Virus record (IMG/VR): IMGVR_UViG_3300043036_000338
Reading direction: 5' to 3' (one strand)
Source: a virus
Lineage: Duplodnaviria; Heunggongvirae; Uroviricota; Caudoviricetes
DNA: 64,000 bases
Shown: positions 3,492 to 56,939 of the stretch, in pieces
How positions within the stretch are numbered: the stretch's first letter is position 1
Layout of the letters: every line of letters begins with the position of its first letter
Notes under the pieces: model-generated
What the model was told of the DNA's origin: nothing
What the model saw: the letters and a program-made list of their open reading frames with translations, nothing else
Database searches by the model: none
Position numbers and translations under genes: made by a program

Positions 3492-3950
3492 ATGGCAGCG
3501 TATCAAGGCAAATTTAAACCGAAGAATCCTTCTAAGTATAAGGGTGATCCTACAAATATTATTTATAGATCATCGTGGGAACTTAAGTTAATGGCATATT
3601 TGGATTCTCATCCGAATGTTATTAAATGGGGCTCGGAAGAGATTGTGATACCATATGAAAGTCCAGTTGACGGAAGAATGCATAGATACTTTCCAGACTT
3701 TTTTGTAGAGCAAATAAATAGAGATGGTAAAAAAGAAAAGATACTAATTGAAGTGAAACCAAAAGCACAGACAATAGCACCGAATCCAAGTACAAAGTTA
3801 ACACCCAAGGGAATGTTGAATAAAAAATATATCAATGAAGTTATGACTTACGGCGTGAATATGGCAAAGTGGAAGGCCGCTGAGGAAGTCTGCAAGGATC
3901 GTGGCTGGATTTTTCGAATTATGACGGAAATAGAACTAGGAATCAAGTAA
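3492..3950 (+). CDS. 4: head completion protein gp4-like
   Basis: KYKGDPTNIIYRSSWELKLMAYLD...WGSEEIVIPY conserved gp4 motifs; 152 aa. Confidence 0.65.
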   Translation: MAAYQGKFKPKNPSKYKGDPTNIIYRSSWELKLMAYLDSHPNVIKWGSEEIVIPYESPVDGRMHRYFPDFFVEQINRDGKKEKILIEVKPKAQTIAPNPSTKLTPKGMLNKKYINEVMTYGVNMAKWKAAEEVCKDRGWIFRIMTEIELGIK

Positions 3951-9601: not shown

Positions 9602-9949
9602 TTAGAAACTAACAGTGGCGCCAATAACTACATCACCGAAGTTAAAATTCTCATCTGTAGATACATTTGCATACAAATTAAAACTGTCGTTCAAATCATA
9701 CGAAGCTTCAAGATCAAGACCGACAAAATATACATCAGCCAAATCAATATCGGTACCGATTGTCAAGTCGACAGAAGCAAGACTGTAATACAATGCTGGA
9801 GTTGCAGTCAATGCAATATCACCACCAGCGGTCAAATTGTATTCTGCATTGATGTCGGCGCCAACAGAGAAGCCATAGCCAAGGTCAGCAGCCATTGCAG
9901 AAACAGCGGTCATTGCAAGGATGGTAGTTGCAAGAAGAATCTTTTTCAT
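9602..9949 (-). CDS. small secreted/beta-rich protein with signal peptide
   Basis: MKKILLATTILAMTAVSAMA signal peptide; 115 aa. Confidence 0.45.
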   Translation of the reverse strand: MKKILLATTILAMTAVSAMAADLGYGFSVGADINAEYNLTAGGDIALTATPALYYSLASVDLTIGTDIDLADVYFVGLDLEASYDLNDSFNLYANVSTDENFNFGDVVIGATVSF

Positions 9950-9959
9950 AGTATTTCCT

Positions 9960-10265
9960 TTAATTATATAAACATGTTTAAGTGAGCCCGTTAGGTTATA
10001 CGGTGGAGCTCATACCGCAAGAGATTAAGCCGCTAGGCGAACCTCAGGTGCGAAATTTTCATTTGCCTTTAGTTTATTTAGCCGATACGAGGCCATCCGG
10101 TAAACTCCACTCTATCTTCACACCTGTCGATCCTAATTTCGACCCCAGCAAAGATACACTACCAGACGGCGTAAAGCCTATCCCCGTGTCAAAAGACCAT
10201 AAGCAGTGTATCTATGGTGGAGTCGTGCGGTACCGCCCCGCAGTCCAGAATGTGTCCATGTTGCT
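9960..10265 (-). ncRNA. ssrA: tmRNA (ssrA), apparently circularly permuted two-piece form
   Basis: minus strand: GGGGTCGAAATTAGGATCGAC (10146-10126) matches the tmRNA 5' consensus; tag frame GCA AAT GAA AAT TTC GCA CCT GAG GTT CGC CTA GCG GCT TAA = ANENFAPEVRLAA* (10066-10025); T-arm-like hairpin plus CGACTCCACCA 3' end (10246-10215) lies upstream of the GGGG 5' end and pairs with it, including G3:U70. Confidence 0.6.
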
Positions 10266-10321
10266 TCAATATTTACAAGTCTATTTATAACACCTTAATT
10301 AGTATATGTCAACCATTGTTT

Positions 10322-13231: not shown

Positions 13232-13275
13232 TTACATATACTTTATAATATAAACAAAAGCAAATGTCAACAACA
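13232..13275 (-). promoter_or_regulatory. T4-early-type sigma70 promoter plus conserved leader (representative of >20 copies)
   Basis: minus strand AAAATAGTTGTTGACA-17nt-TATAAT/TATAAA then TATATGTAACCAATGAAGGA leader with Shine-Dalgarno. Confidence 0.6.
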
Positions 13276-14748: not shown

Positions 14749-14824
14749 TGGTTACATATACTTTATAAAACAAACTAAAGTATATGTCAACAACAAAATG
14801 CATTTATTTCAAATTATTTTTCAA

Positions 14825-15760: not shown

Positions 15761-15865
15761 TTGTGCAGCAGCAACTGGATCTTTGTCAAGGATGAAAATA
15801 TTAATTTTTTATTCCCCATATGTTTACATTAGTTTTATAATATAACCAGAACCAAATGTCAACAA

Positions 15866-16996: not shown

Positions 16997-17054
16997 TTGA
17001 TCTCTTCCCTTTTGGTTACATATACTTTATAATATAAACAAAAGTAAATGTCAA

Positions 17055-20259: not shown

Positions 20260-20290
20260 AACAAAAAAGAGCGCCGAAGCGCTCTTTTCT
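20260..20290 (-). terminator. rho-independent terminator followed directly by early promoter -35
   Basis: GAGCGCcgaaGCGCTC hairpin plus T-run then GTTGACA. Confidence 0.6.
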
Positions 20291-21663
20291 CACATTTTTT
20301 TCCACGACTTTTCAAAGTTACCAGCCATGATGTTACCATATGGCATGATACGATCAACAGTCACAGCCAAACCAAAACCCAACATATCAGCCTGAACAGT
20401 AGCAGCACTTTTGTAAGCACTTGGCAATTCACTGATGTCAGGTATTCCAGACCAGAACCGAGCATCAATACCACGAGTTTCCTGTGCTACCAATTCGGCT
20501 TCAGACAAGGTCTGTTGACGAGCAAATTGTGAACGACTGAAGATACGACCGGCACCGTGTGGTGCAAAACCTATCTCATTGTCGGCATGTGCCTTAACAA
20601 ACAAAATTGGCTCAGCCATGTTCATAGGAACAATTTGAGTGTCATATGGGTCACGCAACAAAGCAGTGTTAACAGGTGTAGAACCTTTGGCGTGATATAC
20701 CAATTGATCATCACTTGGGTCACGGAATACAAAGTTGTGTGGAGTAAAGATACGATCAGTACCAGAAACAGACAAACGACTCAACACAGCATCATGCAAA
20801 CTGTTATGGTTAGCACGAGTCCAATCGTGGGCAATCTCCAAAGCATCCCAATATTCAACACCTTCGTCAGTGTCCAATGGAATCCAGGCATTCTGCTTCA
20901 ACGTTTTTGGGCTCATTTGAATCCGAAACTTTTCAGCAATCTCCATACCTTTTTTATAGATACCAGCGCCAAAACCACGGCTACCGAAGTGCGAGATCAA
21001 CCAAACATCACCAGTGTTTTCACTACGGCCAACAGATATAAAATGGTTACCATCGCCAGAGGTGCGCAAATGACTCATAGAAGCATTTACAGTTTTTTGA
21101 TCACGAGTAAAGCGGTTAACCAAAATGCGATCCAACAAACTCAAGTCAATTTGTTCAACAGGAGTCGAATGGCCACCAGGACCAAAGTGACTCAATTCAT
21201 GTGCAACATTCAATACATCCAAAGGATCAACATCACCGAAGTTGGTGGCACTCATAGAGCAACACACATCAGCTGAGTGCATGCCAGGATGGATAGCATT
21301 ACGAGTCACAACCATACCACCCACTGGGATAGTACCAATTGAACCTGCAGGACAAGCATCTGGCATTACCGAAGCACTTACAACTGTGGGAGTCTTGACC
21401 AATTCAGCCATAGTAGCCATTACAGCATTGTAGTTTGCGGTCTCGTATTCATCACCTTGTGACAAAAATACATTAATAGCAATATTGTCTTGCAATGGCA
21501 TATACACTGGTTCTACAGGCATATTTCGTTGGATAATGTCAGCCAAGACAGAGTCATCAACTACAGCAATCTGACGCAATTCTTTCAGGATCTTACCGAT
21601 ATGTGGACCTGGCTTTACACCACGGTCAATCAAATCTTTGCCAGTCCAAACATATTGTTCCAT
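20290..21663 (-). CDS. rtcB: RNA-splicing ligase RtcB
   Basis: 457 aa; HNFVFRD, FAPHGAGRIFSRSQ and other RtcB conserved His/Cys motifs. Confidence 0.85.
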   Translation of the reverse strand: MEQYVWTGKDLIDRGVKPGPHIGKILKELRQIAVVDDSVLADIIQRNMPVEPVYMPLQDNIAINVFLSQGDEYETANYNAVMATMAELVKTPTVVSASVMPDACPAGSIGTIPVGGMVVTRNAIHPGMHSADVCCSMSATNFGDVDPLDVLNVAHELSHFGPGGHSTPVEQIDLSLLDRILVNRFTRDQKTVNASMSHLRTSGDGNHFISVGRSENTGDVWLISHFGSRGFGAGIYKKGMEIAEKFRIQMSPKTLKQNAWIPLDTDEGVEYWDALEIAHDWTRANHNSLHDAVLSRLSVSGTDRIFTPHNFVFRDPSDDQLVYHAKGSTPVNTALLRDPYDTQIVPMNMAEPILFVKAHADNEIGFAPHGAGRIFSRSQFARQQTLSEAELVAQETRGIDARFWSGIPDISELPSAYKSAATVQADMLGFGLAVTVDRIMPYGNIMAGNFEKSWKKM

Positions 21664-29299: not shown

Positions 29300-29344
29300 T
29301 GGTTACATATACTTTATAAAACAATTCAAAGCAAATGTCAACAA

Positions 29345-31421: not shown

Positions 31422-31469
31422 TTGATATATACTTTATAAAACAAATCAAAGCAAATGTCAACAACTAAA

Positions 31470-42719: not shown

Positions 42720-42794
42720 TGGTGCCCCAGGTAGGAATCGAACCCACACACTCGCCTTACAAGAGCGAACCTCTACCATTAAGGATACAAGGGC
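42720..42794 (-). tRNA. tRNA-Thr (UGU)
   Basis: rc GCCCTTG...CTTGTAA...GGGTTCGATTCCTAC...CACCA. Confidence 0.65.
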
Positions 42795-42798
42795 ATAT

Positions 42799-42873
42799 TG
42801 GAGCGGGCAATGGGGATCGAACCCACGACAATCAGTTTGGAAAACTGGAGCTCTACCACTGAGCTATACCCGC
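42799..42873 (-). tRNA. tRNA-Gly (UCC)
   Basis: rc GCGGGTATAGCTCAGTGGTAGAGCTCCAGTTTTCCAAACTG...GGGTTCGATCCCCATTGCCCGCTCCA. Confidence 0.75.
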
Positions 42874-43067
42874 ATTAAGTGTCTGTCTCTCCAGACTGTC
42901 ACATCAGCCCCAGAAGGCGTTTACCCGATGTTTGGTAGGTAGCTTCATATATTCGCACTTCACAAATTTATTACAGGATGGTCTGTGTGTGCATTGAATG
43001 TACTATCTAACCATCTACAATAAGATCTTACGATCATGCTTGGTGGCAGTATCCATCCTAATCTTAT

Positions 43068-43523
43068 TTATACGACCAGCGTTGCCCATTGCTGAATTTT
43101 TTGTTTTAAAATAGCAGTTGCTTCGTATTTATTTTTCTCACGATTCCAAATCCGATCACCATCTTGCTTACCGTATTTTGCTACCATAGCCCATACACGA
43201 GGTAGGGTTAGAATTTGAAAGTATGACTCGTTTTCAGGCTTACGCTTTTGTTCGACTGATGTATAAGGCACACCAGCAATATAAGCACGAGCAAGGAAGG
43301 TGGCACGATTCTCATTCCGAACATCCCACTTACGGTGGTTATTCAATGAACAATATGTATTGAATGCTTTATCATCCCAACGAGGATACATATCGTTGTT
43401 TCCAGCGGCATGCCATTTATTTAGCGCCCATTGATACTGTTTGAGTTGCTTCCGTTCTTCAAATTTAATGATACGGGCTTCTTCGGATAGGTGTTTCGAT
43501 TTTACTTTAAGTTCTACAGACAT
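43068..43523 (-). CDS. hypothetical protein
   Basis: ORF 151 aa. Confidence 0.4.
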   Translation of the reverse strand: MSVELKVKSKHLSEEARIIKFEERKQLKQYQWALNKWHAAGNNDMYPRWDDKAFNTYCSLNNHRKWDVRNENRATFLARAYIAGVPYTSVEQKRKPENESYFQILTLPRVWAMVAKYGKQDGDRIWNREKNKYEATAILKQKIQQWATLVV

Positions 43524-43915
43524 TTTATTCTCCTAAATTGATTTCAAATTGGTTTCATGTTACAGTCCAATTTAGGGTGGTTTAGTAATCTACAAGTTAT
43601 CACTCATTGTGATTCTCCTTTTTTAGAATTTCTTCGTATTTAGATACGACAACATCCAGTTCATCAACCTGTTTAACACTTTCTTCTGTGAACTTAAGAT
43701 CACCTGATTTAATTTTAGTCATCATAGATTCAAGTCTATCAGCCATATTTTGTAGAGTCACAGTTAGTTCTCCTTGTTAATATCCAATATATCAGCCATG
43801 TCATGATTCACATCAGCATGACCTTGTTCATCAGCTCTTACACACAAAACAACATCACGCAAGGCCAATCTGGTAAGTTGTGATTTAGATACGACATAAA
43901 TTAGCCTTTCTTTAA

Positions 43916-43991
43916 TGGTGGGTCTACTGGGACTCGAGCCCAGATTGTTCGTTTTAGAGGCGATTGCATACACCGTTCATGCTCTAGACCC
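43916..43991 (-). tRNA. tRNA-like gene with good acceptor, D and T arms but poorly paired anticodon arm (loop CUCUAAA; possible CUA suppressor-like or pseudo-tRNA)
   Basis: rc GGGTCTAGAGCATGAACGGTGTATGC...CCTCTAAAACGAAC...CTGGGCTCGAGTCCCAGTAGACCCACCA. Confidence 0.4.
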
Positions 43992-44123
43992 AAATTTGGG
44001 ATGCCCTATACTTCCCGATATGACAGTCAGCATTTGATTTCTTCCATAGCCGACATCCAACTATAGCATATACCGTTACTAATTACTCTACTCTATCAAC
44101 GATCTAACTTTGAGTAGAAATTC

Positions 44124-44639
44124 TTATGTTATTTTTATCAATGTGCGGTTATGAATTCGTTGGATATTGTAACCGCCGGCAAGGATAGTGCGGATATTGA
44201 TATGATGATCACCAACGTTGAAACTACCTTCATAACCATCACTCATGTGTGTCAGATCAAAGTCAGGAATAGTCTCAATATTCTTCTTACGCAGAGCCGA
44301 GATGATTTGCAAATCACGTTTTGCAATAAGAGCATTCGTATTCTTCATCATGTTCTCAAGGCCACCGGCAAGACCACGATCGGCAATCAAATTCATCATG
44401 GATTGACTACCCCAGTACTTGATCACTTCAGGACCACGCAATTTGTAATCCATACGGCCTGTATGTTGAGCATCCCATTCCTTCATATGAGGTTGGAAAC
44501 CTTTGATCTTTTTCTCTGCCCATTCTTGGTCAGACTTAATCAGTTTGGCATTCAACTCTGCAAACGCTTTAGTGATCTTGGCTTGCATATCTTTTTCAAT
44601 TGAAAAGGTCGAGAAATTTGATACGGTCATGGCGAACAT
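44124..44639 (-). CDS. hypothetical protein
   Basis: ORF 171 aa, early promoter at 44650-44700. Confidence 0.4.
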   Translation of the reverse strand: MFAMTVSNFSTFSIEKDMQAKITKAFAELNAKLIKSDQEWAEKKIKGFQPHMKEWDAQHTGRMDYKLRGPEVIKYWGSQSMMNLIADRGLAGGLENMMKNTNALIAKRDLQIISALRKKNIETIPDFDLTHMSDGYEGSFNVGDHHINIRTILAGGYNIQRIHNRTLIKIT

Positions 44640-44695
44640 CTCCTGTTGATATAATACTTATATATCACATAGAAAGTAATGTCAACAACTATTTT

Positions 44696-44787
44696 TGGCG
44701 GATCGTGTAGGATTTGAACCTACGGTAGAACTTTTGCCCTACGACGGTTTAGCAAACCGCTGATTTAAACCACTCATCCAACGATCC
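44696..44787 (-). tRNA. tRNA-Ser (GCU), type II
   Basis: rc GGATCGTTGGATGAGTGG...GCGGTTTGCTAAACCGT...long variable arm...GTAGGTTCAAATCCTACACGATCCGCCA. Confidence 0.7.
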
Positions 44788-44911
44788 AATTCTTCATATG
44801 AAGGATACACCGGTCTTAATCCACCAGACATCGGTTCATCCACGTACACGCGGCAGCCATAAGCAAGACGATCGAGCACGCTTCACGGTGTATCCATGAT
44901 ATAAAGAATAT

Positions 44912-44989
44912 TGGTGCCTTCGGTGAGATTCGAACTCACACTAGACCGCTTTTGAGGCAGTCGCCTCTACCAGGTTGGGCTACGAAGGC
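44912..44989 (-). tRNA. tRNA with anticodon CAA (Leu-type anticodon, but short variable loop)
   Basis: rc GCCTTCGTAGCCC...ACTGCCTCAAAAGCGGT...GTGAGTTCGAATCTCACCGAAGGCACCA. Confidence 0.5.
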
Positions 44990-45173
44990 ATTACGTATTT
45001 CTTTGTTATGGATTTTCTTGATCATGTCATCACGCATATCAATGCAGACGCAGCACCAACACTTATCCACCTTTGTCTTCTTGCCGTGCATATTGATATT
45101 GGCAGCGGCAGGATGATTTAGTGATCCGCGTGGCTTGTGATCACGATTGCGACCACGACCATAGACTGGAGAT

Positions 45174-45410
45174 TTAGCCATTGTAATCCTCATCAGTTGC
45201 TTTATAGTAATCATCCATGCGCTTTTCTTGCATTGTCTTGCTTTTCCAGTGCTTGCGAGGATTGCCGCACATATAACAAGAACAATTATGTGGAGTATGC
45301 GCCAGTTGACCAATAGACGATTCATCAAGTGGTCGCCATTTGGAAAAGATCTTAACAACCCATTTCTTTTTCTTCAACTCTTGAAACCGCCGAAAAGCTC
45401 TATCACGCAT
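45174..45410 (-). CDS. hypothetical small basic Cys/His protein
   Basis: ORF 78 aa (HTPHNCSCYMCGNPRKHW). Confidence 0.25.
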   Translation of the reverse strand: MRDRAFRRFQELKKKKWVVKIFSKWRPLDESSIGQLAHTPHNCSCYMCGNPRKHWKSKTMQEKRMDDYYKATDEDYNG

Positions 45411-45577
45411 TAGACTCTCCTATAGCATTTAACAGAATGTTTGGGGAAAGCTAAGATTACTCTTAGCGGCACCTTGCCATACTCCCCATCAAAGATACAC
45501 TGTTTGGATTCAAACCTTGTTCTAGTCTTGTCGATCTGCGCTTCTCACAGTGCTGACAGAGTATCTATGGTGGGGAG

Positions 45578-46210
45578 TTAGTTAAATTTAAGTTTTCTTC
45601 CGATTGACCAACCATTTGGTATTAATTGATCTCTATTTATTTTTTTACTTTGTTTTAATTCTATAGAATGAATCCACATTGTCCCATATTGTGAATTGTT
45701 AGGACCTTTTTGATGATCAATTTTATCATATGTCAGTTTCTTTTTTTCAATAGCTTCTGGTGCACGTGAAGCTTCGTTTGCAATACGTCTAACATTGGGA
45801 TCAAAAAATCCTAATTGTTTTTCTTTAAGAGTTTTAATCGTTTTAGAATTACCTTTTCTTTTATCTAAAGATTGTTGGAATTCTGGCGATCTGAATGGAT
45901 TTTTAGCTTCACCTAACTCATTATTTATATAACCCCAACCGCCTCTGCCACCAGCACAAAGATTGTATGTATTTTCTTTTAAACAAAACTCTTCAGTTAC
46001 TAACTCCGCTTCTTTAGCGTCCATATCAGATTCATTATCAAATTGGAAGAGTATTTCTTTTTCAAAATTCTCAATTCCATATTTTTTAATAGATTCCTTT
46101 ATCAACTTACCTGAACCCATATAACCATCATTGAGGTTCCGAGTTTGATGCTTACCAACATAAATTTTGTTATTCACTTTGTTTGTTATTTTATAAATCG
46201 TATAGAACAT
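45578..46210 (-). mobile_element. GIY-YIG homing endonuclease gene
   Basis: KIYVGKH...YMGSG; paralogue of 53816..54331; late promoter TATAAATA at 46233-46240 and SD AAGGAG. Confidence 0.7.
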
Positions 46211-46410
46211 TCAATTACTCCTTGCATATCAGTATTTATAATACTATTTATTTCATAGGAGTATCGGAATCGAACCGATAGTTTTTGTTTTCTTGCTGTA
46301 AACATTCTAAATTAGTATTGCTAGGGGTTTCGGACGCTCCCTATTACGCAGCACTACGCTACTCGACTTACGCCTAAGTCTGGGTCTGTTAGTTCCGGCC
46401 TAGCAATTTT

Positions 46411-46488
46411 TGGTGCCTCTAGTCGGATTCGAACCGACACTGTATGGCTTCTAAGACCATTGCCTGCTACCAATTGGGCTACAGAGGC
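46411..46488 (-). tRNA. tRNA with anticodon UAG (Leu-type anticodon, short variable loop)
   Basis: rc GCCTCTGTAGCCCAATTGGTAGC...ATGGTCTTAGAAGCCAT...GTCGGTTCGAATCCGACTAGAGGCACCA. Confidence 0.5.
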
Positions 46489-46493
46489 ATATT

Positions 46494-46567
46494 TGGTAGT
46501 CTGTGAGGGAATCGAACCCACGTAGTCGCCGTGTAAAGACGATGTTCTACCATTGAACTAACAGACC
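46494..46567 (-). tRNA. tRNA-Val (UAC)
   Basis: rc GGTCTGTTAGTTCAATGGTAGAACATCGTCTTTACACGGCGA...GTGGGTTCGATTCCCTCACAGACTACCA. Confidence 0.7.
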
Positions 46568-46709
46568 ATAATTGCTGGAGTCGACGTGATAATTCAATCG
46601 ACTCCGAAACCCTTTTGTGCACATGGTACATAGGGAAATTTGGTGAAGTGGATTTACGTCGTATGCCACTTCGGTGTTGAGATTTCGACACGGAGTACTC
46701 AACGTATAT

Positions 46710-46783
46710 TGGCGATCTATGGGGTAATCGAAACCCCGCCCTCGGATAGACAATCCGGTACGCTACCACTACGTCAATAGACC
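46710..46783 (-). tRNA. tRNA-Asp (GUC)
   Basis: rc GGTCTATTGACGTAGTGGTAGCGTACCGGATTGTCTATCCGA...GGGGTTTCGATTACCCCATAGATCGCCA. Confidence 0.6.
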
Positions 46784-46788
46784 AATTT

Positions 46789-46863
46789 TGGAGCGGAGAA
46801 TGGGAATCGAACCCACGACCTTCTCGTTGGCAACGAGTGGCTCTACCTCTGAGCTACCTCCGC
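46789..46863 (-). tRNA. tRNA-Gly (GCC)
   Basis: rc GCGGAGGTAGCTCAGAGGTAGAGCCACTCGTTGCCAACGAGA...GTGGGTTCGATTCCCATTCTCCGCTCCA. Confidence 0.75.
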
Positions 46864-47072
46864 AATTTAATTCTGGTGTCGATCTTCCTGCAAATCCTGA
46901 GAAGGAATTTAACGATTTTACCAGCAGGCCGTCGATCATAAAGTAAAAATCTCGGTTATAAATACACCGCCAGAAACTGAATATGATGGAATAACGAGCA
47001 TCGGCCATGAACCGATAGTCTTTTTAGTTTCCATGTCAATACTTTGTAAACTCTGACACAACCATCATAACT

Positions 47073-47147
47073 TGGTGGAGAATGGGGGATTCGAACCCCC
47101 GACTCAAGCGTGCAAGGCTAGTGTTTTCCCGATTAGACTAATTCCCC
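47073..47147 (-). tRNA. tRNA-Ala (UGC)
   Basis: rc GGGGAAT...CTAGCCTTGCACGCTTG...GGGGGTTCGAATCCCCCATTCTCCACCA with G3:U70. Confidence 0.7.
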
Positions 47148-47273
47148 GTTATTTGTTGTTTCTCATAAAGAATGAACACTTCTTAAAGTTTTCAAGACCT
47201 ATCTCTTTGATAGTTGCCACAAACGCGGCAATTAATGCTTCTTCTCGTGTCATTGTTCATTCCTTTTAATTTA

Positions 47274-47343
47274 ACAGGATCGTTTTGTCCGCTAAGACAT
47301 CATTGCATTGATTTAGCGTTTTGGTTTGCTGAACCGATCCTAA
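47274..47343. other. inverted-repeat-bounded structured element E1 (CAGGATCG...CGATCCTA) containing TTGTCCGCTAAGACATC motif
   Basis: 7-bp terminal inverted repeat; family with 48050-48172 and 50126-50215. Confidence 0.45.
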
Positions 47344-47347
47344 ACTA

Positions 47348-47438
47348 TGGCGGAGAGTGTGAGATTCGAACTCACGGAACGCTATTAACGTTCGGTAGTT
47401 TTCAAGACTACAGGCATAATCCTCTCGCCCAACTCTCC
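47348..47438 (-). tRNA. tRNA-Ser (UGA), type II
   Basis: rc GGAGAGTTGGGCGAGAGG...GTAGTCTTGAAAACTAC...long variable arm...GTGAGTTCGAATCTCACACTCTCCGCCA. Confidence 0.7.
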
Positions 47439-47445
47439 GTATATT

Positions 47446-47521
47446 TGGCTCCTGAGGAGGGTTACGATCCCCCGACCAACGAGTTAACAGCTCGGCGCTC
47501 TACCAACTGAGCTACTCAGGA
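47446..47521 (-). tRNA. tRNA-Asn (GUU)
   Basis: rc TCCTGAGTAGCTCAGTTGGTAGAGCGCCGAGCTGTTAACTCG...GGGGGATCGTAACCCTCCTCAGGAGCCA. Confidence 0.65.
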
Positions 47522-47593
47522 ACATTGGTTATAATATGAAGGGCGACTATATCCTTCATCATTTTACCCTGACTAGCAGGTCTGCGCTGTATT

Positions 47594-47669
47594 TGGTTGC
47601 GGTGGGACGGACTCGAACCGTCGATCTACTGGTTATGAGCCAGTCAAGATGCCTCTTCTCTACCCCGCA
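47594..47669 (-). tRNA. tRNA (CAU) copy 1 (Met/fMet/Ile2 family)
   Basis: rc TGCGGGGTAGAGAAGAGGCATCTTGACTGGCTCATAACCAGT...GACGGTTCGAGTCCGTC...CACCGCAACCA; one bulge in acceptor. Confidence 0.55.
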
Positions 47670-47690
47670 AAACTTAATTTGAAAATGCTT

Positions 47691-47769
47691 TGGTCGACTC
47701 ACCGATTCGAACGGTTAAGTAACTAGTGTAGTATCCACATACCTACGCCAAAGAATGCACTAGACTCAT
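47691..47769 (-). other. degenerate tRNA-like element (T-arm CCGTTCGAATCGG and ...GTCGACCA 3' end, no cloverleaf)
   Basis: rc ...CTAGTG...CACTAGTTACTTAACCGTTCGAATCGGTGAGTCGACCA. Confidence 0.35.
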
Positions 47770-47870
47770 TTTCAAAACTCTGTTTTCAACGATACACCAC
47801 CAAAGCGTCTTTCTGGGCATAACCAGCGACCACCATGTCTACTCGCTTACATCTTTCGAATGGCGCACGA

Positions 47871-48030
47871 GGTATATCTGTGAAAACAGAATTTCTTCTG
47901 TTTCTCTCTATTATCGACCGAAGTCTAAGAGTAATTCTAAATTGTCAAAGAGCAAGTAGTAAGGTTGTTTTTCATTCCCTATGTGTTATATATATCATAT
48001 ATGGAATGGATGTCAACAACTATTTTTGTT
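47871..48030 (-). promoter_or_regulatory. tRNA-operon early promoter plus conserved leader, copy A
   Basis: minus TTGACATCC...ATATAT then leader CTTGCTCTTTGACAATTTAGAATTACTCTTAGA...GAAACAGAAGAAATTCTGTTTTCAC; homologous copy at 52620-52770. Confidence 0.5.
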
Positions 48031-48049
48031 TTTTACATTTATTTTTTAA

Positions 48050-48172
48050 CAGGATCAACTTTTTGCTACGTGTGCTAACCATTACACTAGTGACCCATTT
48101 GGCGCCACTTGGGATTCGAACCCAAACTCCGATCGTTCAATGATATGCTATTTGTTGCTGTAATGATCCTAA
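48050..48172 (-). ncRNA. inverted-repeat-bounded tRNA-like element E2 (candidate Y-RNA-like/tRNA-mimic)
   Basis: outer stem AGGATCA/TGATCCT; internal T-arm TTGGGTTCGAATCCCAA plus ...GTGGCGCCA; D-arm-like GTGTAATGGTTAGCACAC placed after T-arm; ~370 nt downstream of rsr. Confidence 0.35.
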
Positions 48173-48332
48173 AATTTTACGTTTGTTGTAGATATGGTTT
48201 AATTTCCCAGAGACCATCGGTCACTGTAACACAAAAGTGTTTAGTCCCCAATGTCACGATCCATCTTTTATTCATTCGAGTATCTCCAAAATTATGTAGC
48301 CACGACCCATTACAGGTCGTAGCGAGCATTCA

Positions 48333-48490
48333 TCAATCAAAGTCTTGATAAGAGGTGCCGATAATCTTATCAGAGCCACCATACTTATCAAGCATTTTTT
48401 CAAATTCTTTACGATGATCAACTTTTGGTTCAGCTTCAGGTTTTTTCTTTTTCTTTAAAAAATCCTTAAACTTATCTATTGTTCTTTTCA
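48333..48490 (-). CDS. small Lys-rich ORF between rsr and element E2
   Basis: manual ORF MKRTIDKFKDFLKKKKKPEAEPKVDHRKEFEKMLDKYGGSDKIIGTSYQDFD. Confidence 0.25.
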
Positions 48491-48537
48491 TTCAGACACC
48501 TTTAAAGGAAATTCCAGCTATGACTATTTATACAGTC

Positions 48538-56887: not shown

Positions 56888-56939
56888 CTCCTGTTGGTTA
56901 TATTTACTTTATAAATCAAATAAAAGCAAATGTCAACAA

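Follow-up and report, generated by a model that had tools for sequence, protein, structure and literature searches.

What is a complete transfer-messenger RNA (tmRNA) gene, with its two halves in inverted order, doing in a T4-like phage, and is it a working gene? The question is raised by a locus on the minus strand of a 64,000-nucleotide stretch of viral DNA, the IMG/VR record IMGVR_UViG_3300043036_000338 (Caudoviricetes), all of which was analysed and which we call the window. A prediction made from the sequence alone had placed a circularly permuted ssrA with an alphaproteobacterial-style tag at positions 9960-10265. We find that the window holds a complete circularly permuted (two-piece) alpha-type tmRNA gene of a T4-like phage, and the match of its elements to tmRNA is far beyond chance. 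Our reading, which we consider probable, is that this is a working permuted ssrA of the alphaproteobacterial type, a stable part of an aquatic lineage of T4-like phages, and that it keeps host ribosome rescue running during infection.

As the criterion for membership in the permuted tmRNAs, we took a covariance-model score above the curated gathering cut-off. The locus scores 99.6 bits against the Rfam model RF04321 (tmRNA_permuted; cut-off 47, E 3.5e-18) and 86.7 bits against RF01849 (alpha_tmRNA; cut-off 50, E 4.3e-22), with the full model covered in both cases, and alpha is the top-scoring tmRNA subtype for the gene, lower matches within the clan being suppressed. ARAGORN, the other check that had been proposed, also reports the permuted form, at 9934-10309 on the minus strand, with the tag ANENFAPEVRLAA. 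Reading along that strand, the CCA end at 10215 comes first, then G1 at 10146, and then the tag at 10066-10025. The T-arm-like hairpin and the 3' end (10246-10215) do precede the 5' end (10146-10126), as the original prediction had it. It had also named a standard T-arm and CCA end downstream of the tag as the mark of a one-piece gene. There is none, and because the next gene begins at 9949 there is no room after the tag for a second tRNA-like half. The layout is therefore not that of a one-piece tmRNA of the RF00023 type, since its parts are permuted and the tag is followed by no 3' tRNA-like half. The predicted location was correct, and its limits need redrawing: the gene starts with the inter-piece helix and the acceptor piece at 10276, its promoter extends up to 10312, and the terminal pseudoknot runs down to 9984.

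The acceptor piece is 62 nt long (10276-10215), and the RF04321 alignment starts at its first base. It contains the 5' strands of an interrupted helix that joins the two pieces (GUAAAU at 10276-10271 and CACAUUCUG at 10254-10246) and closes with GGACUGCGGGGCGGUACCGCACGACUCCACCA (10246-10215). Within the latter are the T-arm (UGCGG/GGCGGUA/CCGCA, 10242-10226), which aligns to the RF01849 consensus and has the alpha-type T-loop GGCGGUA, the acceptor 3' strand CGACUCC (10225-10219), and ACCA (10218-10215), an encoded CCA end at which CGACUCCACCA terminates at 10215. The intervening spacer, for which about 67 nt had been claimed, measures 68 nt (10214-10147) and forms a long hairpin with a minimum free energy of -23.2 kcal/mol (z -3.8), a value equalled by none of 200 shuffles. 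In the model of the fold, this hairpin would bring the CCA end next to G1. The spacer would be removed at maturation, by analogy with the two-piece tmRNA of Caulobacter crescentus, which is reportedly the prototype, described by Keiler, Shapiro and Williams in 2000.

The coding piece (10146-9981, with a 3' end that the sequence does not fix) starts with GGGGUCGAAAUUAGGAUCGAC (10146-10126). Its first seven bases, GGGGUCG (10146-10140), form the acceptor 5' strand and pair with CGACUCC over 7 bp, with the predicted alanine-identity pair G3:U70 and with A as the discriminator base. A D-loop analogue comes after this strand, followed by the 3' strands of the inter-piece helix (CAGGUGUG at 10126-10119 and GUUUAC at 10105-10100) and the region of the first pseudoknot, PK1 (10099-10067). 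The tag reading frame (10066-10025) is GCA AAU GAA AAU UUC GCA CCU GAG GUU CGC CUA GCG GCU UAA, with GCA as the resume codon, ANENFAPEVRLAA as the peptide and UAA as the stop, and with U at -5 and A at -4 before the resume codon. Both the sequence and ARAGORN bear out the in-frame tag running from GCA to LAA and TAA that had been claimed. The terminal H-type pseudoknot (10019-9984) aligns with the 3' end of RF01849. Its stem S1 pairs UGCGGU (10019-10014) with ACCGUA (10004-9999), and S2 pairs GAGCUC (10011-10006) with GGGCUC (9989-9984). All helices are intact in the window copy. The 4-bp middle helix drawn in RF04321 is non-canonical in the window, and four other middle pairs take its place.

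Whether this anatomy is maintained by selection can be judged from related phages. There is no close isolate genome, and the 501-nt locus had no blastn match (word size 11) among 50,697 phage records. We reached relatives in IMG/VR through gp59 and short exact patterns, and the loci found in this way have L-numbers below. The search pattern demanded acceptor pairing and G at position 3, but not T-arm pairing, so the acceptor-stem pairing and G3 seen in the relatives are not independent evidence. From an anchored alignment of 24 distinct phage copies, we counted base pairs by column, using as slid controls the same helices with the 3' partner moved by 1-3 columns. Over all helices, these controls paired at 15-67%.

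The T-arm is paired in 120 of 120 cells across the 24 copies, with double changes at 3 pairs. In the inter-piece helix, pairing reaches 92% over the outer 6 bp and 86% over the inner 8 bp, against 15-52% in the slid controls, and the four middle pairs are kept in 20-24 of the 24 copies, in several pair types and with covariation. In the terminal pseudoknot, pairing is 91% in stem S2, where 5 of the 6 pairs show double changes, and 80% in S1. There are six different acceptor stems among the copies, all with G3:U70, and their positions 5-7 covary. A local hairpin in the 5' part of the acceptor piece had looked convincing by eye in close relatives. We rejected it, since it was 67% paired against up to 56% in slid controls, did not fold in 10 of the 24 copies, and inter-piece pairs fit this part better.

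The tag is conserved as a peptide. Its last two alanines are invariant in all 24 copies, yet all four GCN codons are used for them; leucine precedes them in 23 copies. The Asn, Phe and Ala codons of the tag vary synonymously, and UAA, UGA and UAG all occur as stops. UA is found at -5/-4 of the resume codon in 20 of the 24 copies. Because the helices show compensatory changes, and the tag is conserved at the amino-acid level while its codons vary synonymously, the alignment indicates that the related copies are under selection as working tmRNAs. Such a pattern is in keeping with an RNA that folds and is also translated, and it argues against a passenger gene and against a decoy consisting of a tRNA-like domain only.

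The position of the gene is also conserved. On the minus strand of the window, the order is cell-wall hydrolase, a 64-amino-acid open reading frame (ORF), a PGDYG-family protein, the tmRNA, ORF115, ORF65, gp33, gp59 and gp32. Our gp59-based search of IMG/VR gave 80 loci, 47 of which have at least 2.5 kb upstream of gp59, and in 36 of these 47 a permuted tmRNA lies on the same strand at a median of 1.1 kb upstream of gp59. All of the 16 relatives tested pass RF04321, with alpha_tmRNA as the best subtype in 15 and beta_tmRNA in one. We take this to mean that, in this branch of the T4-like phages, the tmRNA gene is a fixed and selected part of the replication and late-transcription neighbourhood and not an occasional pickup.

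A permuted ssrA inside a T4-like phage had been called unusual. That is true across phages overall, in which 2.3% have a tmRNA, but it does not apply within this clade, and such genes have already been published. Buchholz et al. described two-piece alpha-type ssrA genes in 2022 in the OM43 myophage Melnitz and in pelagimyophages (PMC9004378). In their survey, 402 of 18,146 phage genomes had a tmRNA, and 53 of the 133 unique tmRNAs were called two-piece, 50 of them from marine or aquatic phages; a permuted tmRNA was present in 17 of 47 Melnitz-like contigs (PMC9004378). Two-piece phage tmRNAs are thus both known and common among the relatives of the phage studied here, and the window is another example. 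The new detail lies in the promoter class, the synteny, the modular exchange within the gene and the ORFs in the spacers of relatives.

The closest described counterparts are the ssrA of Melnitz (MZ577097, 45984-46436) and those of the pelagimyophages Mosig and PMP-MAVGs, which like the window gene are permuted, alpha-type and carried by aquatic T4-like myophages. In Melnitz, as in the window, ssrA comes after the cell-wall hydrolase region and before gp33-gp59-gp32, with thyX between gp59 and gp32 in Melnitz. Both genes have the promoter TTGACA-N17-TATAAATA, and both pass RF04321 and RF01849. The sequences are, however, too diverged for blastn, the Melnitz tag is ANDNYVPVDYALAA rather than ANENFAPEVRLAA, and its spacer is 142 nt long instead of 68 nt. 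A glutamine riboswitch in the 3' domain is common, although not defining, for ssrA of the Melnitz type (PMC9004378). Melnitz has one (L003 6399-6447, 52.8 bits) and is the only one of the 16 tested relatives that does. In the window, neither the glutamine riboswitch (RF01739) nor any other riboswitch matched between 8500 and 11500 up to E 5, and a porin-like ORF follows the tmRNA instead.

The window gene resembles the alphaproteobacterial two-piece tmRNAs (RF01849) in gene order and in its tRNA-like features (G3:U70, A73, the T-loop GGCGGUA and a CCA end that is encoded), and like them it has a tag of the ANDN type with LAA at its end and a terminal pseudoknot. It differs from them in being carried by a phage behind a phage promoter, in having no adjacent smpB and in being, probably, co-transcribed with a protein gene; about 43 positions that the RF01849 model has after the stop codon are missing. 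Other phage tmRNAs, in mycobacteriophages (Bxz1, Catera and others) and Bacillus phage G, resemble it in belonging to large myophages with many tRNAs (PMC4131195). Unlike the window gene, they are one-piece and unpermuted, come from phages of other hosts and are unrelated in sequence.

The sequence upstream of the acceptor piece belongs to a promoter class that recurs in the window. The -35 hexamer is TTGACA (10312-10307), and of the 24 distinct regions upstream of related tmRNAs nearly all have a -35 box. The -10 element TATAAA (10289-10284) extends to TATAAATA (10289-10282), which is the T4 late-promoter consensus. The window has 17 sites resembling TTGACA-N17-TATAAT, with one mismatch allowed, where 1.1 would be expected; every one lies on the minus strand, and 12 of the 17, the tmRNA promoter included, end in TATAAA. 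The class can be written as TTGACAT..TTATAAA with a 17-nt spacer, and it appears to be that of early promoters; other examples on the minus strand are at 13242-13270, 14762-14790, 15834-15862, 17026-17054, 29313-29341, 31433-31461 and 56908-56936. TATAAATA itself occurs at 21 sites in the window against 4.9 expected, and exactly at the same place in 15 of the 24 related upstream regions, that of Melnitz included. Transcription is predicted to start about 7 nt downstream of the -10 element, at or beside G10276, the first base of the acceptor piece. From these motifs, early expression of the tmRNA is likely, and added late expression through TATAAATA is possible.

The transcript probably continues into a protein gene. 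ORF115 (9949-9602, minus strand) is preceded by the ribosome-binding site (RBS) AAAGGAAA and encodes a small secreted, porin-like protein with a signal peptide, an alternating beta-strand-like sequence and a C-terminal Phe; its match to Porin_4 is weak (E 0.04). Its 28 homologues are all about 115 amino acids long and all metagenomic, and some carry the JGI labels 'opacity protein-like' or 'predicted porin'. In at least 12 of the 24 relatives, too, the tmRNA is followed by this ORF start, with no terminator in between. Between the terminal pseudoknot and the ATG of ORF115 we found no terminator; an AU-rich stretch and the RBS are there instead. An intrinsic terminator lies past ORF115 (9595-9556, minus strand), with a 14-bp stem followed by UUUUAUUAUU and a fold of -28 kcal/mol (z -7.4), and a new promoter, TTGACA-16-TATATT (9552-9525, minus strand), comes after it. 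Since there is no terminator between the pseudoknot and ORF115, the tmRNA and ORF115 probably share one precursor transcript, in which case the 3' end of the coding piece would have to arise by cleavage.

The sequence data show how the gene is built, which family it belongs to, its synteny and covariation, the selection that acts on its tag and the class of its promoter; the processing, charging, use of SmpB and benefit to the phage that are set out next are inferred. Host RNA polymerase would transcribe the gene from the early-class promoter TTGACA-N17-TATAAATA, starting at or beside the first base of the acceptor piece. In the folded precursor, the hairpin of the 68-nt spacer would display an acceptor stem like that of a tRNA; host RNase P would cleave at G10146, and the enzymes that mature tRNA 3' ends would trim to the encoded CCA at 10215. 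The expected products are an acceptor RNA of about 62 nt and a coding RNA of about 165 nt, joined by the acceptor stem and the long interrupted helix. Host alanyl-tRNA synthetase (AlaRS) would charge the molecule through G3:U70 and A73, and host SmpB would bring it to ribosomes that have stalled on mRNAs that are broken or lack a stop. Translation would restart at the GCA codon and append ANENFAPEVRLAA, freeing the ribosome and marking the product, through the terminal LAA, for proteolysis of the ClpXP type. The benefit is likely to be that ribosome rescue is maintained while the phage stops host transcription and degrades host nucleic acids, a purpose it may share with the RtcB RNA ligase and the 26 tRNA genes that the window also encodes.

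Several points weigh against a working ribosome-rescue gene. The window copy scores 86.7 bits against RF01849, while its nearest relative scores 113 bits. Its tag has Arg in place of the usual Ala four residues from the end, a minority state found in 2 of the 24 copies. The single PK1 helix that we tried is 57% paired in the column counts, in a heterogeneous alignment of relatives. The coding piece has no terminator of its own. No SmpB was found among the matches listed for the 62 ORFs of at least 100 amino acids within these 64 kb of a contig of at least 94 kb, so function depends on the SmpB and AlaRS of the host. Finally, the literature on phage two-piece tmRNAs yielded genomic descriptions only, and we found in it no data on expression, processing or tagging. 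The window contributes one more phage two-piece tmRNA, uncultured and well annotated, and its promoter, processing sites and tag are concrete experimental targets.

The unusual Arg can be traced to an exchange within the gene. The nearest relatives, L019 and L020, have a gp59 that is 99% identical to that of the window and DNA that is 92% identical over 4.7-5 kb, and their tag is ANENFAPKAFALAA. Across the promoter and acceptor piece, the window matches L019 at 103 of 106 positions. In the segment that covers the 3' half of the tag and the terminal pseudoknot (10045-9981, minus strand), it matches L019 at 44 of 65 positions and L028 at 62 of 65, although the gp59 of L028 is 57% identical to that of the window; the tag of L028 is ANINAKPEVSLAA. 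Taken together, these identities indicate a short recombinational exchange inside the tmRNA gene with a distant phage, and not random drift. The exact tag and pseudoknot cassette was found in one IMG/VR contig only (L016/L028), and the direction of donation cannot be told. The exchange left the window with the minority Arg four residues from the end of its tag and kept the terminal LAA.

The spacer between the two pieces is a second variable part of the gene, with a length of 20-266 nt in the relatives overall and of 29-168 nt in a smaller set of them. In a first set, 4 of 5 distinct spacers of at least 140 nt hold an ORF of 41-48 codons (shuffle p 0.002-0.01), and in a broader IMG/VR sample 15 of 17 distinct spacers of at least 125 nt are filled by an ORF of 33-77 codons. 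These ORFs usually start 12-24 nt past the CCA end, often with a Shine-Dalgarno sequence right after CCA; they were noted in L003 (6077-6219), L004, L016/L028, L093, L114, L132, L136, L155, L162, L166, L170, L171, L172, L192, L195, L199, L205 and L211. One family of 62 amino acids has the RBS AAGGA directly after CCACCAU, and its differences at codon positions 1, 2 and 3 number 16, 4 and 26, a substitution pattern that looks to be of the coding type. In several spacer ORFs the reading frame runs up to the RNase P site without a stop, and the mRNA left by processing would then be of the non-stop kind. The 68-nt spacer of the window has no such ORF. In L077/L078, a 141-nt spacer (3618-3759) has no ORF, folds at -40.9 kcal/mol and contains a perfect T-arm-like GTCGGTTCGAGTCCGAC; it is possibly a tRNA remnant inserted in the tmRNA spacer, and neither ARAGORN nor Rfam calls a tRNA in it.

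These ORFs raise the idea that the permuted tmRNA gene doubles as a processing-driven expression cassette, giving the tmRNA pieces and mRNAs from one early transcript. The mRNAs would be released by the tRNA-processing enzymes, for ORF115 in the window and for small spacer-encoded proteins in relatives, and the stop-less spacer ORFs would themselves turn into substrates of trans-translation. We regard this idea as doubtful, but if it is true, the exchange of tag plus pseudoknot would reflect selection on what the tag does. Neither the small genes in the spacers nor the modular exchange of tags is described in the literature that we consulted on phage tmRNAs.

A different account of the benefit accepts that the tmRNA works and places the advantage in selective tagging, through early tagging of truncated host proteins for proteolysis and recycling of their amino acids, or through a tag tuned to particular host proteases or adaptors. 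The early-class promoter would suit it, and so would the pattern of variation among the phages, in which the tag has fixed ends but differs in its middle and C-proximal parts, and its 3' half is exchanged between distant phages. Amino-acid recycling is an alternative that Buchholz et al. also raised (PMC9004378). However, trans-translation tags whatever stalls, and we see no mechanism by which it would be targeted. As the -10 element fits the late-promoter motif as well, expression may extend beyond the early phase, and the variation in the tag could be neutral drift at positions that are unconstrained in bacteria too. We consider selective tagging unlikely as the main benefit.

Another account starts from the other RNA genes of the window and sees the tmRNA as a backup against host defences or stress nucleases that cut or deplete host tmRNA and tRNAs, within an RNA-maintenance toolkit. 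The window has a tRNA bank on the minus strand (42720-54737) with 23 tRNAs called by ARAGORN and 3 more Rfam matches (43919-43991, 50729-50799 and 50889-50959, minus strand), 26 in all and covering at least 18 amino acids. It also encodes an RtcB-type RNA ligase (20290-21663, minus strand, E 3.5e-32) and, in other ORFs of 100-200 amino acids, a PNKP-type HAD phosphatase domain and a cyclic-phosphate-processing receiver domain. The ligase, phosphatase and receiver domains suggest an RNA-repair module beside the tRNA bank and the tmRNA. Co-occurrence in one 64-kb window is nevertheless a weak argument, and Melnitz has a tmRNA but only 4 tRNAs. The literature consulted contained no defence that targets tmRNA, and we know of none aimed at it. 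A backup role of this kind seems to us quite unlikely.

A decoy or inhibitor, an RNA that binds host SmpB or AlaRS and blocks host trans-translation, has a precedent in mycobacteriophage DS6A, whose tmRNA derivative is, like the window gene, phage-borne and is on record as inhibiting host tmRNA (PMC4131195, PMC11915505). The DS6A molecule consists of the tRNA-like domain only, without a tag frame. For such a role that domain would suffice, yet in the lineage studied here selection has also kept the full tag frame, the context of the resume codon and the terminal pseudoknot. With the tag under selection and the synteny fixed, both a decoy and a passenger gene are disfavoured, and we hold the decoy to be very improbable. 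That the gene is a recently captured host gene without a role, or an attachment-site mimic for integration as the original prediction had also suggested, is extremely improbable: tmRNA genes are common integration sites and prophages can acquire ssrA fragments (PMC9004378, PMC4131195), but this gene is complete and not a fragment, shows covariation and a phage-type early promoter, keeps its synteny in 36 of 47 diverged relatives, has its tRNA-like-domain 21-mer in 1 of 185,579 species genomes with the rest of that gene dissimilar, and lies among a lytic T4-like gene set in which no integrase family appears among the matches listed for the 62 ORFs of at least 100 amino acids.

The working ribosome-rescue gene that we favour leaves the host to be considered, as the two-piece form had been taken to hint at a host lineage that uses such tmRNAs. 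The hint is weak, since Melnitz has an alpha-type ssrA and infects an OM43 host, which is not alphaproteobacterial; by this precedent, an alpha-type phage tmRNA would be no proof of an alphaproteobacterial host. The single species genome with the exact 21-mer of the tRNA-like domain is a GC-rich Pseudorhodobacter metagenome-assembled genome, the tmRNA of which has the tag ANDNRAPAFALAA and is otherwise dissimilar to the window gene. Since that tmRNA is GC-rich and otherwise dissimilar, we dropped this match as a means of naming the host. The G+C content of the window is 38%. The window matches the JGI metagenome contig Ga0377191_000064 (94 kb), in which the tag is identical.

Other genes of the window agree with the placement of the tmRNA in a T4-like genome, which the neighbouring gp32, gp59 and gp33 bear out. 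Elsewhere in the window are gp53, a T4 baseplate protein, T4 RNase H, ribonucleotide reductase, PhoH and ThyX, and, as a set, the genes are those of a lytic T4-like phage. The best matches of gp32, at 58.6% amino-acid identity, are to the Sinorhizobium phages phiM12, phiM7, phiM19 and phiN3, followed at about 53% by cyanophages and the Pelagibacter phage HTVC008M. In this affinity to phiM12-type phages, as in its 26 tRNA matches, the phage of the window differs from Melnitz. Mobile-endonuclease domains occur in window ORFs of 100-260 amino acids, namely SegE-type GIY-YIG (3 ORFs), NUMOD3, T5orf172 and a TnsA-like endonuclease N-terminal domain. Among the relatives, L031, L035 and L096 have a second terminal-pseudoknot motif (GGTATGAGCTCCACC...AACGGGCT) after the first, giving tandem 3' pseudoknots.

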